DNA of 52,026 nt from Candidatus Campbellbacteria bacterium (lineage in GTDB: Bacteria; Patescibacteriota; Minisyncoccia; Phycocordibacterales; CSBR16-193): the NCBI GenBank assembly GCA_007125155.1, contig SLDR01000016.1:1-52026 (forward strand), given 5' to 3'. Both the position numbers and the translations under genes were made by a program. The notes below the pieces were generated by a model, which was given only the letters and a program-made list of their open reading frames with translations, did no database searches and was not told the origin of the DNA. Shown here one piece after another: positions 3,068-28,668 of this stretch (positions are counted from its first letter, which is position 1; each line of letters starts with the position of its first letter).

Positions 3068-3095
3068 GCCCTTCAAAATAAAGAAGGGCTTTTTT
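3068..3095 (+). terminator. Intrinsic terminator after rplT
   Basis: GCCCTTC-loop-GAAGGGC followed by a T run. Confidence 0.7.
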
Positions 3096-3579
3096 AATTT
3101 TGATCAGTCTGGTTGAGAAAAGGCTCGCCAATACCACCCGGACCACCGGCCTCCTCTTTATCCGGTAGAAATTTTGTCGAACCGGAAAAAGAAAGAAAAG
3201 CCAAAGTTCCACCTAATAGACCGGCCGTTACGTCACCGAATGTGTCCATCCAGTATATCCGCCCCATGGAAGGGTCAACATTCCCTATGTAAAACTCAAA
3301 CAGCTCCCATAAAACAGCTACCGCCATGACACAGAAAAAAACCGTAAGGAATCGTTTTTTATAGGAAGCAAGGGAAGAATGCCTTCGAAGGATCCACATG
3401 ATCAATGTGGCCACCCAAAAACCGCCTAAAAGATGCATTATGACGTCCAGCCACCAATAAAACCAGTAAAGATAAAAAAGGGTCGCAAAAACGTGAAAAA
3501 GTATCAGCAAAAAACCTCCGACAAATAAAATAATGCCCGAAAGACGATCGTTATCTTTTGATTTTATCTTTAAAAACAA
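3094..3579 (-). CDS. Membrane protein (VanZ/DUF2238-like)
   Basis: Four hydrophobic segments with WLDVIMHLLGG, LWELFEF and DTFGD motifs. Confidence 0.65.
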   Translation of the reverse strand: MFLKIKSKDNDRLSGIILFVGGFLLILFHVFATLFYLYWFYWWLDVIMHLLGGFWVATLIMWILRRHSSLASYKKRFLTVFFCVMAVAVLWELFEFYIGNVDPSMGRIYWMDTFGDVTAGLLGGTLAFLSFSGSTKFLPDKEEAGGPGGIGEPFLNQTDQN

Positions 3580-3761
3580 TGAGATTCTAATTACGGACTT
3601 GATAAAACTTGATGAAAAAACTCAAACCCAAGTATTAAAAGATCCTATAGAAAATATAAATGCTCTATCTAACTTACATTGAGCCCCTTATTGAACTTTC
3701 TTCTTTATCTTCCGTGCAACAACAACTTTCTAAAGCAATCTCTAAAAGCAAGTCCAATAAG

Positions 3762-3935
3762 GGGCCATTTGAAATATCGCCTCGACCCTGAAAGTCAAGT
3801 GGGTTCTTACAACCTGCGTTCATCAGTACTCCTTTCCCGATCTTGAATTGTCGAAACCGAGGAAGGGTTCATCAAAACGAGGTGATATCAAGATCCCTTG
3901 CGATTGGCGTCTAAGGAATATTTCAAACAACCCAC
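3762..3935 (-). ncRNA. 6S-like RNA, copy 2
   Basis: About 173 nt rod: closing stem GGGTTGTTTGAAATAT/ATATTTCAAATGGCCC, central bubble, GGGATCTT/AAGAACCC inner stem and apical CCTTCCTCGGTTT/AGATCGGGAAAGG stem; has its own promoter. Confidence 0.6.
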
Positions 3936-3941
3936 ACACAT

Positions 3942-3969
3942 ATACTATCACACAAACCGCCCTTGTGAA
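3942..3969 (-). promoter_or_regulatory. Promoter of 6S-like copy 2
   Basis: TTCACA-16 nt-TAGTAT with extended TG. Confidence 0.55.
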
Positions 3970-3995
3970 ACAAAGGTCATAAAACGCACAACAGA

Positions 3996-4027
3996 AAAAA
4001 ACAACAGCCCGGTTTTACGGGCTGTTG
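3996..4027 (-). terminator. Intrinsic terminator after 6S-like copy 1
   Basis: CAACAGCCCG-loop-CGGGCTGTTG followed by TTTTTTT on the minus strand. Confidence 0.8.
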
Positions 4028-4037
4028 GAAAGGTCAA

Positions 4038-4211
4038 CAGGATTGAAGTGCTTGCCCTAGCAAAATGCTAGGTGGGTGCCTGCACTTAAAATCGTTCAGA
4101 ACTCCTCCTCAACCTTGGGATACCAAAACTGGGGAGGAGCTCTTCACAACATAAGGATATAAGGCTCCCTTTTTTTGTGCACCAAATAAGGACAAGCGTT
4201 ATCAATCCTGC
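4038..4211 (-). ncRNA. ssrS: 6S RNA, copy 1
   Basis: About 174 nt rod: CAGGATTGA/TCAATCCTG and GCTTGTCCT/AGGGCAAGC closing stems, central bubble, GGGAGCCT/AGGCACCC stem followed by ACCT, apical GAGCTCCTCC/GGAGGAGTTC stem; promoter upstream and terminator downstream. Confidence 0.7.
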
Positions 4212-4216
4212 TTTTA

Positions 4217-4246
4217 ATAATAGATACTTATGAACAAACAAATCAA
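4217..4246 (-). promoter_or_regulatory. Promoter of 6S copy 1
   Basis: TTGATT-18 nt-TATTAT, which places the start at the 5' end of the closing stem. Confidence 0.6.
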
Positions 4247-4281
4247 GTCCTTAAGTGGAAAAGCTGTTTACAAAATGTTAA

Positions 4282-4887
4282 TTACTCCAAAAGACCGTCT
4301 AAATTAACGTCATAAAGGATAGACTCCTGCACAAGCCTGTACTGCATTATTTCCTTATCTTCAAACCATAAAGGTATCTCCTTTTCGGCTTCTTCGGGAT
4401 TTCCGGAAGCGTGGATAAGATTTCTTATCGCTCGACCGTCGGAATCAGCCATAGAGTAAGAGTCGAGAACATAGTCACCCCGGATCGTACCGACATCGGA
4501 AGTTCTCGGCTCCGTACCTCCGGTCGCTTTCCTCACCAATTCTACGGCATGTGCACCCTGCCATATCATTGCCACCACCGGACTGCAGGTCATGTAGTTT
4601 TTAAGTCTCTTAACGACACTGTCGCCAACGACCTCGGGATCATTTGAAGGAGGTGTCTCTCCTTTTGTCTTATAACTCTCAATAGCCTTGGCCCCGACCT
4701 TCTTTTTAAAATCCGGATCGACCGAATAGTGTCTTTCTATAAGATCCTCCGACGGGAGGATCATTTTTATAGCTATGGCCTTTAGGCCGCTCTGTTCATA
4801 TCTCTTTATTATCTCTCCGATCAGTGAACGTTGAACACCGTCCGGCTTGATGATCACCAATGTTCTTTCTTTGCTATAATGATCCAT
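4282..4887 (-). CDS. ndk: Nucleoside diphosphate kinase
   Basis: ERTLVIIKPDGVQR, GTIRGDY and NLIHASG motifs. Confidence 0.97.
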   Translation of the reverse strand: MDHYSKERTLVIIKPDGVQRSLIGEIIKRYEQSGLKAIAIKMILPSEDLIERHYSVDPDFKKKVGAKAIESYKTKGETPPSNDPEVVGDSVVKRLKNYMTCSPVVAMIWQGAHAVELVRKATGGTEPRTSDVGTIRGDYVLDSYSMADSDGRAIRNLIHASGNPEEAEKEIPLWFEDKEIMQYRLVQESILYDVNLDGLLE

Positions 4888-21149: not shown

Positions 21150-23309
21150 CTATTTTTTTCTTAATGAGATCACCTCATCCGCCACATTTCGGGGGACGAT
21201 CGCGTAACGGTCGAATTCCATTGAAAAGTTGGCTCTTCCGGCCGTCATGGATCTTAACTGGGTTATGTAGCCGAACATTTCTGAAAGTGGGACGAAAGAG
21301 TGAATGACGGTGTCGTTGTGACCTCGTTCTTCCATTTTTTCTATCTGTCCTCGTTTGGAGTTAAGATCACTGTTCACATCTCCCATGAACTCGGTGGGAG
21401 TTACCACCTCAACGCGCATGATCGGTTCAAGAAGAACCGGTTTTGCTTTCACGGCACCTTCCTTGAAGGCCTGCGAAGCGGCTATCTGGTATGCGATCTC
21501 GGAAGAATCCACATCATGATAAGTTCCATCGATGAGCTCGCAAGACACATCGGTCATAGGAAATCCGGCCAATATTCCCCGATTCATAGCCTCAAAAACA
21601 CCCTTTTCCACCGCAGGAATGAATTCCTGAGGAATGACGCCTCCTTTAATGGAATTTATGAACTCGTAACCTTCTCTTCTTGATACGTTTTTGGCTTGTT
21701 TTTTATTAGCTTCATCTTCAGATATCTCAAGAGGTTTGATCACTATCTTGACATGACCGTACTGACCCCTACCACCCGTCTGTTTGATATGCTTATACTC
21801 CGCCTCCGCCGTATCGGTTATTGTCTCTTTATACGCCACCTGGGGCTTGCCTATCCCGGCTTCTACGGAGAATTCTCTTTTCATCCTGTCTACAATGATA
21901 TCCAAATGAAGCTCGCCCATTCCCCATATGACGGTTTCTCCCGTCTCATCCGATGTCGTGACCCTGAATGTGGGGTCCTCGGCTGAAAGTCTGCTTAAGG
22001 CCATTCCCATCTTCTCCTGATCAGCTTTTGTTTTAGGCTCTATCCTCATGGATACCACCGGTTCCGGAAACTCTATCTTCTCGAGTTCTATCGGATGCCC
22101 TTCGTCACAAAGAGTGTCCGAGGTTGTCGTCTGCTTCAATCCGACCGCGGCGGCTATTTCACCGGCATATACCTCATCAACCTCTTCACGATGGTTGGAG
22201 TGCATCCTGACGACTCTCCCTATCCTCTCTTTTACCCCTTTTGAGGCATTATATACATAAGATCCGGCCTTAAGTTTTCCCGAATAAACCCTGAAATAAG
22301 TGAGTTGACCGACATAAGGGTCTGTCTGTAATTTAAATGCCAACGCGGCAAAAGGTTCATCGTCCCCAGCCTTTCGAGACACCTCCTCTCCGGACTTCGG
22401 GTGAACACCCACGATCGGCGGAACATCCAAAGGAGAAGGAAGATAATCCACGACTGCATCGAGCATAAGCTGGACACCTTTATTCTTTAAAGCCGAACCG
22501 CATAAGACCAGAACGATCTCATTGCTCAAAACCGCCTTCCTCAAGACCTTCTTTGTTTCTTCAAGCGGAATATTCCCCGTTTCAAGGAATTTCTCCATCA
22601 TTTCTTCATCGTTCTCGACAATTTTTTCCATCAACTCATTTTTCAATTTGGCCACATCCTCTTTGTACTCATCGGGAACATCACGGACCTGAATGTCCTC
22701 GCCCATTTTACCCTCAAAGTAATAAGCCTTTTCCGTCAGGAGGTCTATGATGCCTTCATGGTTCTCTCCTTCGCCTATCGGTATCTGTGCACGAACCGCA
22801 TTGGGGGTCAAGCGATCGATTATGGTCTTGAATGATCGCTCAAAACTGGCACCCGTACGATCAAGCTTATTAACGAAACATATGCGAGGAACCTTATACT
22901 TATCAGCCTGCTTCCACACGGTCTCGGACTGAGGTTCAACACCGGCAACCCCGTCAAAAACCACAACACCTCCGTCAAGGACCTTCATCGACCTTTCCAC
23001 CTCAACCGTAAAGTCAACGTGTCCGGGAGTATCTATTATATTAAAACGGTATTGATTCTTTTTGTCCTTTCTTTCTTCTATCCAACTGGGGGCCCAAAAA
23101 GCGGTTGTCGCCGCAGAGGTTATTGTGATACCTCTTTCTTTCTCCTGCTCCATCCAATCCATGATAGCTTCACCGGCGTGAGTCTCCCCCATTTTGTGGG
23201 AAATACCGGTATAAAAAAGTATCCTCTCACTTACAGTGGTCTTACCGGCATCGATGTGAGCAATAATGCCAAAATTTCTTACTTTTTCTAGTTCAAAGTC
23301 TCTTGCCAT
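21150..23309 (-). CDS. fusA: Elongation factor G
   Basis: [24 protein letters not shown] and YHDVDSS motifs. Confidence 0.99.
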
Positions 23310-27977: not shown

Positions 27978-28668
27978 AACGGGCGCCTGAGATGCCTTCC
28001 ACCCTTTTCTTACAGTCATCCCAGCTCTTATGAGATCGAACCTCCCCTTCGACCGAACTTACGTAAGAGTAAGCTTTGGCGGAAGAACGGCTACCCGCCT
28101 TGATCTCTTTTTTCGTAAGTGTCTGTTCCAATGAAAAGATATTTTTACCATATTCTTCGAAACTTACATCCTTAAGACCGGGGTCTTTACCGTCGGCGAA
28201 CGCACATGCGATCTCATCCGCACGCTCGTTACCGACCACACCGGTGTGACCTGAAACATGCTTCCAAGAAATTGACATATTCCCCATTAGCGCTTTCAGC
28301 TCCTTCCACAGGTCCTCGTTTTTAACAGGATCGCCATCTCTCTTTCTCCACCCCCTCTTCTCCCATAGACCGATCCACTCGGTAACGCCTTTTACAAGAT
28401 ATTCGGAATCGGTGTAAACGGTCAACAGAGGACGACTTTTTTCATTCATATATCTTTCGATAACATACCTTAGCGCTTCTATTACCGCCTTCATTTCCAT
28501 TCTGTTGTTCGTCGTGTCGTCCTCCCTCCCTCCGAGTTCAACAACCCTTCTTTCCTGTTTCGATTTACCCGGAAAAACGATCACGGAGCCCCATCCGCCG
28601 GGACCGGGATTTCCTCGAGATGACCCATCGGTAAATATGATAATATGTTCTCCGGCATTTTTCGTCAT
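27919..28668 (-). CDS. rnhA: Ribonuclease HI with a C-terminal hybrid-binding-like domain
   Basis: FTDGS..GNPG, TTNNRME, TDSEY, GH and NERAD; C-terminal SWDDCKKRVEG..GARFKK. Confidence 0.93.
   Translation of the reverse strand: MTKNAGEHIIIFTDGSSRGNPGPGGWGSVIVFPGKSKQERRVVELGGREDDTTNNRMEMKAVIEALRYVIERYMNEKSRPLLTVYTDSEYLVKGVTEWIGLWEKRGWRKRDGDPVKNEDLWKELKALMGNMSISWKHVSGHTGVVGNERADEIACAFADGKDPGLKDVSFEEYGKNIFSLEQTLTKKEIKAGSRSSAKAYSYVSSVEGEVRSHKSWDDCKKRVEGISGARFKKVYSPDEERELIRDWSA

Follow-up and report, generated by a model that had tools for sequence, protein, structure and literature searches.

What are the two structured RNAs that lie head to tail behind the nucleoside diphosphate kinase gene (ndk) of a Candidatus Campbellbacteria bacterium, and why would so small a genome keep a pair of them? 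The locus stands on contig SLDR01000016.1 of assembly GCA_007125155.1, analysed over a stretch of 52,026 nucleotides (nt), here called the window, and both RNAs, R1 and R2, are encoded on the minus strand. The candidate identity is 6S RNA, which is widespread in bacteria and restrains RNA polymerase. Fold, covariation, descent and distribution together make it probable that both genes encode a compact and divergent 6S RNA and are paralogues, R2 having arisen when the gene was duplicated in tandem in the ancestor of the genus. The limits of the two RNAs, set from alignments, are as follows.

4038-4210, minus strand: R1, 173 nt, orthologue of the single-copy 6S-like RNA of the lineage.
3762-3933, minus strand: R2, 172 nt, genus-specific paralogue.

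An earlier note on this DNA had described a gap of 700 base pairs (bp) free of open reading frames, holding two minus-strand rods of about 173 nt with a common architecture and with shared motifs at matching positions, and each of these observations is borne out. Between the stop codon of ndk (4282) and the predicted start of the next gene, encoding a DUF2238-like protein (3579), lie 702 nt that contain only short open reading frames of 31-57 amino acids (aa), none of them credible. Those that run across the RNAs, such as one of 51 aa at 4086-4241, were rejected as genes; they are not conserved reading frames, because the lengths of the orthologous RNAs in the six species of the genus differ by non-multiples of three (176/182/148/190/156/157 nt for R1 and 176/180/185/193/176/177 nt for R2). 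The shared motifs are all present, as the pairs GGGAGCCTT/GGGATCTTG, GGAGTTCTGAACG/GGAGTACTGATGAACG and GGCACCCACCT/GAACCCACTT.

Both stretches fold as RNA with far more stability than expected from 200 dinucleotide shuffles of each. The R1 stretch (4040-4215) reaches -71.2 kcal/mol against -44.7 +/- 3.9 for its shuffles (z -6.8) and the R2 stretch (3762-3935) -61.5 kcal/mol against -44.4 +/- 4.2 (z -4.1), with no shuffle of either as good (0/200 in each case). Both RNAs are kept in all five sister species of the genus, and alignments of the six species contain 46 predicted consensus pairs for R1, 15 of them with compensatory changes, and 53 for R2, 16 of them so changed. The apical stems vary freely in length and sequence and retain their pairing. 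A rod in which a large central bubble separates the closing stem from the apical stem is backed by this covariation; conserved sequence flanks the bubble, and its 3' strand can form a small hairpin.

The two RNAs are built on one plan. On the 5' side the closing stem gives way to the 5' bubble strand, a single-stranded segment some 20 nt long, and then to a helix that pairs GGGAGyy with rrCACCC; above this follow an internal loop, a further helix, a symmetric UGAUGA/CUGA loop and the variable apical stem, and on the 3' side a 7-bp hairpin stands directly behind CCC and abuts the closing stem. In R1 the closing stem pairs 4202-4210 with 4038-4046 and 4192-4197 with approximately 4049-4054, the 5' bubble strand covers 4170-4191, the core helix joins GGGAGCC (4163-4169) to GGCACCC (4074-4080), the loop sets UGAAGAG (4140-4146) against CUGAACG (4093-4099), and the apical stem and 3' hairpin occupy 4099-4142 and 4055-4073. 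The corresponding parts of R2 are a closing stem of 15 bp (3919-3933 with 3762-3776), a 5' bubble strand at 3898-3918, a core helix of GGGAUCUU (3890-3897) with AAGAACCC (3801-3808), a loop of UGAUGAA (3868-3874) with CUGAUGA (3820-3826), an apical stem at about 3831-3867 and a 3' hairpin at 3781-3799. Across the 12 aligned sequences of R1 and R2 the invariant letters are AGGGA, A.AU, UGA.GA, C.GA and ACCCAC.U.

A combined MAFFT alignment of R1 and R2 was discarded, its closing stems and 3' hairpin being one column off and RNAalifold retaining only 24 core pairs; because that alignment was out of register, the first covariance model was built from the six R1 sequences alone. This R1 model gives R1 itself 178 bits and matches every R2 copy of the genus from end to end at 34-68 bits (52.1 bits, E 8e-12, for the R2 of the window), and by this measure of sequence and structure R1 and R2 are paralogues. 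It also finds matches in 74 of 151 sampled genomes of the order to which this bacterium belongs. An order-wide model, rebuilt from 41 aligned clean matches and partly trained on both R1 and R2, extends the count to 127 of the 151, or 113 of the 134 of good quality. Members of the RNA family so defined measure some 104-231 nt, mostly 120-160.

A single match is the rule in the order (123 genomes), two being present in four: the genome of the window (G000), its congener G003, a genome of another family (G040) and, weakly, G089. Within the taxonomic family, all six genomes of this genus hold two copies and all four genomes from three sister genera hold one, so the duplication is specific to the genus. 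R1 is accordingly best described, as far as comparative evidence goes, as the ordinary single-copy 6S of the lineage and R2 as an extra duplicate that one genus has kept. In G040 a tandem pair of its own follows an ndk-like gene (L058, G040:C5, 1516-1636 and 1817-1943), in which terminator-like hairpins separate the copies and the second copy is preceded, at 7 nt, by a promoter-like site; its two members differ strongly in G+C (0.56 vs 0.43), and the pair is apparently separate in origin from that of the genus. As a side observation, G089:C2 has weak family-model matches of 35 and 41 bits, 5 kb apart, at 23082-23303 (minus strand) and 28157-28277 (plus strand), so that G089 too may carry a pair, though not a tandem one.

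Covariation extends through the order. In an alignment of 44 order matches fitted to the model, one row of which is a reverse-strand artefact, 91.1% of pair cells hold standard pairs, against 63.0% when columns are shuffled and 32-46% when the structure is slid by 1-3 columns, and 43 of the 48 pairs change on both sides. The helix of the 3' hairpin follows the same pattern, with standard pairs in 87% of cells and changes on both sides in five of its seven pairs. The 5' bubble strand measures 17-23 nt in all 41 family members; it begins UCCUU in this genus, and in many relatives its opening letters are UCUAG. Its first 10 nt are able to form a duplex with the 3' half of this hairpin, with a median duplex energy of -3.7 kcal/mol against -1.0 for shuffles, a modest signal that taken sequence by sequence reaches p < 0.05 in 10 of 41 and p < 0.2 in 24 of 41.

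The UGAUGA/CUGA element at the base of the apical stem is a symmetric internal loop of U-U, G-A, A-G and U-U pairs with box C/D-like letters. A rough pattern count, which misses at least one true case, places it in about 24 of the 41 family members; short members are without it. A kink-turn was considered for this element and ruled out: the fold contains no 3-nt bulge, and a search of the genome with PF01248, the L7Ae family, gave no match.

Is this family 6S RNA? The best RF00013 matches in the order suggest that it is. RF00013, the Rfam 6S model, carries a gathering score of 46.4 bits, an annotation threshold and not a biological property, and its five best matches in the order, all sub-threshold at 20.0-26.9 bits, fall without exception on members of the present family. 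The best of them (26.9 bits) is the R1 orthologue of G003, aligned across the whole model, in which GGGAG and CACCCACCUGG...CUGGG pair with the same 6S consensus letters at high posterior probability. The most conserved letters of the family come to stand there on identical consensus letters (...AAAAAGGGAGucc... and ...gGaCACCCACCUGG..UUUUGCUGGGUCA), and the conserved core of the family, GGGAG ... CACCCACCU with the 3' hairpin, is also that of the Rfam 6S consensus. R2 keeps GGGA and ACCCAC, and the letters flanking them differ.

Intermediate sequences from the wider phylum connect the family to accepted 6S RNAs. In a phylum sample of 151 genomes, RF00013 matches 22 at E <= 0.01, seven of them above its cut-off, and the order-wide family model matches 33; nine genomes are matched by both, and the matched intervals overlap in all nine, one of which (G263) lies above the Rfam cut-off. 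A run of the model over the fetched loci with its filters switched off recovered all seven above-cut-off RF00013 hits inside the same interval (20.8-44.2 bits) and matched three of four fetched sub-threshold loci, the fourth giving 12.3 bits and a better spurious match elsewhere in that locus. Since the family model overlaps the RF00013 intervals and matches every above-cut-off hit, the family grades into the accepted 6S RNAs of its own phylum, and R1 and R2 are homologous to these through intermediate sequences.

Several findings weigh against this identification. RF00013 has no match to either copy in the window even at E <= 10, in the genome at large its only match is one of 11 bits elsewhere, and it exceeds its cut-off in none of the 151 order genomes. 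Under default filters, 13 of the 22 phylum genomes with an RF00013 match escaped the family model. Applied to E. coli K-12 ssrS, the order-wide model gives no match by default and, with filters off, a best score of 7.9 bits elsewhere. The UGAUGA/CUGA loop of many members is not seen in the Rfam 6S consensus line. R2 departs from the family in its most conserved 3' core, with UUGUAAGAACCCACUU in place of UGCGGGCACCCACCU. Promoter-like sites in the gap are at chance level, two found against 1.8 expected from shuffles, and 6S behaviour of family members is a prediction from sequence. Because the family model misses E. coli ssrS, the link to experimentally studied 6S RNA runs only via the Rfam model and the intermediates; as RF00013 bridges both, the miss sets a limit on the homology claim and does not refute it. 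The Infernal check with RF00013 that the earlier note had proposed for both copies thus came back without a match to either, even at E <= 10; the 6S-like reading of R1 and R2 is well supported by covariation and transitive homology.

The genomic setting brings in a quite different account. R1 and R2 might act in cis, as a (doubled) riboswitch or leader of the DUF2238 gene or as a structured 3' untranslated region of ndk, and not as a trans-acting 6S RNA. Synteny in the order is strong: the arrangement map-ndk-RNA-DUF2238 is common, and among 41 loci, a few of which are the same place fetched twice, ndk is the upstream neighbour in 36 and a DUF2238 homologue lies downstream in 27, on the same strand. 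The hairpin behind each RNA resembles a riboswitch with a terminator platform, and the alternative pairing of bubble strand and 3' hairpin would suit a switch as well. That account is nevertheless very improbable, given that the family grades into Rfam 6S and that outside the order ndk adjoins only 4 of 39 loci and DUF2238 only one (ten of the 39 having flanks of just 500 nt). As this linkage is largely lost there, the RNA moves independently, like a free-standing gene. At the locus itself, a terminator, a second putative promoter and R2 separate R1 from the DUF2238 gene, and in the congener G005 a different gene stands behind R1. Nor does any riboswitch family match at E <= 10 between 3550 and 4350; a riboswitch of the yjdF type, or any other before the DUF2238 gene, was rejected on this ground. 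The yjdF riboswitch serves a different protein family.

If the two RNAs are genes in their own right, the next question is whether each is transcribed separately. A consensus scan of the gap places one promoter-like site before each RNA and one terminator between them. Together with the flanking genes, the features of the locus, listed in the direction of transcription, are these.

4282-4887, minus strand: ndk, nucleoside diphosphate kinase, 201 aa (Pfam PF00334, E 2.3e-37), same-strand upstream neighbour of R1.
4217-4246, minus strand: R1 promoter-like site from the consensus scan, -35 TTGATT (4246-4241), 18-nt spacer, -10 TATTAT (4222-4217).
3995-4027, minus strand: intrinsic terminator of R1, a 10-bp stem CAACAGCCCG/CGGGCTGTTG at 4027-4002 followed by a T run.
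3942-3969, minus strand: R2 promoter-like site, -35 TTCACA (3969-3964), 16-nt spacer, extended -10 TGaTAGTAT (hexamer 3947-3942).
3682-3766, minus strand: long hairpin behind R2, overlapping the last bases of the R2 closing stem.
3094-3579, minus strand: predicted DUF2238-like membrane protein, 161 aa (Pfam PF09997, E 1.3e-5, 25.5 bits, slightly below the curated cut-off of 26.4), downstream neighbour.

The putative -10 of R1 ends 6 nt before the first base of its closing stem, and that of R2 about 8 nt before R2. Both are conserved in position. A TAnnnT hexamer occupies the same place before R1 in all six genus genomes, with TTG at the -35 position in all five that could be aligned, and TGnTAnnnT, an extended -10, stands at a fixed distance before R2 in six of six. 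The R1 terminator, hairpin and T run, recurs in five of five aligned congeners and also behind the R1 of G005, and its stem changes in compensatory fashion (AGCCCG/CGGGCT, AACCCG/CGGGTT, AGACAG/GTCTGT, AAACA/TGTTT). Behind R2, a hairpin (AACCCCUUAYCGG...CCGRUAAGGGGUU) is predicted in all six genus genomes; a clear T run follows it in two of them only, G002 and G003, and is absent in the genome of the window, where the hairpin loop is enlarged. This hairpin is probably a terminator. It was also observed that the hairpin (3682-3766) and the closing stem of R2 share bases, which sets the two helices in competition.

The sister species G005 offers a natural separation of the two RNAs. Its R1 and R2 lie on different contigs (regions L016, 1705-2660, and L004, 1-160). 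Behind the R1 terminator stands an open reading frame, signal-peptide-like at its start and at least 245 aa long, which continues to the end of the contig, and R2 is preceded by the hydrophobic C-terminal end of another gene, with the -10 intact. That this R2 keeps its -10 without R1 ahead of it is the best evidence that R2 is independent of the R1 promoter. The locus of G005 has itself gained at least one gene between the two RNAs.

An alternative has the RNAs cut by RNases from the ndk transcript or from a long precursor, as described for the ssrSA-ssrSB pair of Bacillus thuringiensis, with no promoter of their own. No terminator lies between ndk and R1, promoter-like sites are as frequent as in shuffled sequence, and the one studied tandem 6S pair is co-transcribed from a single promoter (PMC7726162). 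Processing is nonetheless unlikely to be the explanation, in view of the strong covarying terminator between R1 and R2 in all congeners aligned, the -10 motifs at a fixed distance from the first base of each RNA in six of six genomes, the -10 retained by R2 in G005 away from R1, and the G040 pair, which likewise has an intervening terminator-like hairpin and a promoter-like site 7 nt before its second copy. The claim that each RNA has its own -35 and -10 and that a terminator separates them has therefore fared unevenly, the conserved -10 positions, the covarying terminator and G005 speaking for it and the chance-level number of promoter-like sites against it. What supports separate transcription of R1 and R2 is of a single kind, conservation.

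The two copies have also diverged. Compared with single-copy relatives (loci L131, L132, L040 and L048), R2 retains an ancestral-looking closing stem (GGGUUAUUUGrAAUAUU...), and R1 retains the 3' core of the family, UGCGrGCACCCACCUrG; each paralogue keeps a different ancestral part, which resembles divided inheritance after duplication. The departure of R2 in the 3' core suggests that R2 may not act exactly like R1. Taken further, R1 might be the working 6S and R2 a duplicate that is drifting or has been re-purposed away from polymerase, for example as a protein decoy or a base-pairing small RNA. R2 does deviate from the near-invariant core UGCGrGCACCCACCU, and the order-wide model, partly trained on both, gives it 76.7 bits where R1 receives 124.1. 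Against this, R2 is kept in all six species of the genus with a mean column identity of 79%, compared with 71% for R1; its apical stem shows compensatory changes; a conserved extended -10 precedes it; and its GGGA/CCC core helix, G-A loop and 3' hairpin are retained, as is a closing stem resembling those of single-copy relatives. On balance a loss of 6S function by R2 seems quite improbable.

The preferred explanation remains a pair of paralogous 6S genes, and their history and action can be outlined in conditional terms. R1 would be the orthologue of the near-universal single-copy RNA of the order, usually found just downstream of ndk, and R2 the outcome of a tandem duplication at the base of the genus, retained since. 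By homology with 6S RNA, the rod would mimic an open promoter and sit in the active-site cleft of RNA polymerase holoenzyme carrying the primary sigma factor; the genome encodes a single sigma factor of the primary type, which has regions 2 and 3, and two short genes of the sigma-70 family. In E. coli and B. subtilis, synthesis of a product RNA frees a strand so that the 3' hairpin of 6S RNA forms, and this is the release switch, which the modest pairing signal of the 5' bubble strand would fit. Release here would similarly come about through transcription of the 5' bubble strand by the polymerase, which would yield a short product RNA, unzip the inner closing stem and allow the 3' hairpin to form. 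Each gene would be a transcription unit of its own, with its own -10, the terminator of R1 and the hairpin behind R2, and as separate units R1 and R2 could differ in timing or amount.

A bolder proposal is that ultra-small Parcubacteria have repeatedly duplicated 6S in place, in this genus and in G040, and that the copies are two separately transcribed regulators with divided tasks. The retention of a different ancestral half by each copy suggests such a division, which might take the form of two polymerase stores that load or release in different circumstances, for instance when the cell is attached or unattached, or by way of product RNAs with different sequences and release kinetics. As a whole the proposal is speculative and unlikely; if it were true, transcription in a 0.75-Mb genome with very few regulators would be under global control by RNA through two channels. 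The earlier note had offered as hypotheses a two-state storage switch for polymerase or the targeting of different holoenzymes by the two RNAs.

The broader interest of the family lies in annotation as much as in mechanism. 6S RNA is regarded as a regulator that nearly all bacteria possess, and standard annotation at the RF00013 threshold recovers none in the 151 order genomes and 7 of 151 in the phylum sample. With the order-wide model the gene is recovered in 127 of the 151 order genomes, which fills a gap in the annotation of a large uncultivated group and suggests that reduced Parcubacteria genomes have kept a global control of transcription that works through RNA. The second copy, retained with its own putative promoter, also lends itself to the question of what purpose a second 6S RNA serves, and a comparable pair in another family, that of G040, appears to have arisen independently. 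A search of article full texts returned no paper linking 6S RNA to these bacteria; the combination of 6S RNA with candidate phyla radiation gave none, that with Patescibacteria one unrelated paper, and the papers returned for the group names did not contain the term 6S RNA.

Some further observations concern the surroundings of the pair. The host assembly comprises 745 kb in 38 contigs and is 98.95% complete, and the closest named relatives of its nucleoside diphosphate kinase are labelled Candidatus Campbellbacteria, Parcubacteria group or Patescibacteria, in keeping with a place among the Parcubacteria. At 201 aa this protein exceeds the 135-position Pfam profile of its family, which matches it in two stretches; the extra length is a feature of the lineage and not a miscalled start, because tblastn covers residues 1-201 across the order. 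Directly behind the ndk stop codon, at 4257-4281 on the minus strand, a block of about 25 nt (TTAACATWTTRTAAACAnCTTTTCC) is nearly invariant in the five genus genomes aligned and more conserved than the remainder of the spacer between ndk and R1. Scanned against Rfam at gathering thresholds, the window as a whole gives three tRNAs only, and the scan between 3550 and 4350 at E <= 10 yields only weak microRNA and small-RNA look-alikes, which arise because the RNAs are long hairpins and not through homology. In one metatranscriptome run, available as contigs only, a single contig matches the locus, over ndk (4449-4600), and none lies over R1 or R2; such contigs are prone to lose small RNAs, which makes this absence uninformative about expression. 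None of the sequencing runs listed for the stretch is recorded as RNA.

Set beside the 6S RNA of RF00013 (SsrS; ssrS in E. coli, 6S-1 in B. subtilis), the family shares a length of about 150-190 nt, the rod of closing stem, bubble and apical stem, the GGGAG behind the 5' bubble strand, a 3' side (CACCCACCUgg...caGG) that aligns to the consensus, and a single copy in most genomes. It differs in scoring at most 26.9 bits in the order against the cut-off of 46.4, in the shorter length of its members and in the UGAUGA/CUGA loop that many of them carry. Gene context differs as well: the order family is linked to ndk, whereas E. coli K-12 ssrS has a gene for 5-formyltetrahydrofolate cyclo-ligase annotated directly downstream. 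Dispersed 6S paralogues occur in B. subtilis (6S-1/bsrA and 6S-2/bsrB), and pairs are reported for several other Firmicutes (PMC8414754). As in those pairs, there are two 6S RNAs per genome, here apparently transcribed separately and hence with room for different timing; unlike the Firmicutes paralogues, which occupy separate loci in genomes of several megabases, R1 and R2 are adjacent in one of 0.75 Mb.

The closest parallel is the Bacillus cereus group, in which tandem ssrSA-ssrSB genes encode 6S-1 and 6S-2 (PMC7726162). According to that paper the B. thuringiensis genes, 21 nt apart, form an operon under one promoter and are processed from a precursor, with neither promoter activity nor a start site ahead of ssrSB. 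The suggestion that an adjacent 6S pair is unusual must be tempered in this light. Common to both systems are two diverged 6S paralogues set head to tail on one strand. The pair described here has a spacer of 104 nt in place of 21, with a conserved intrinsic terminator and a second putative -10, and in the sister species G005 a coding gene stands behind R1 and R2 lies on another contig. The duplication took place separately from that in Bacillus and is limited to this genus. Tandem 6S paralogues as an idea are thus not new, given the B. cereus group pair of PMC7726162; what comparison of the sequences suggests as particular to these bacteria is a second copy retained with its own putative promoter, the recurrence of duplication, and the tandem G-A loop.

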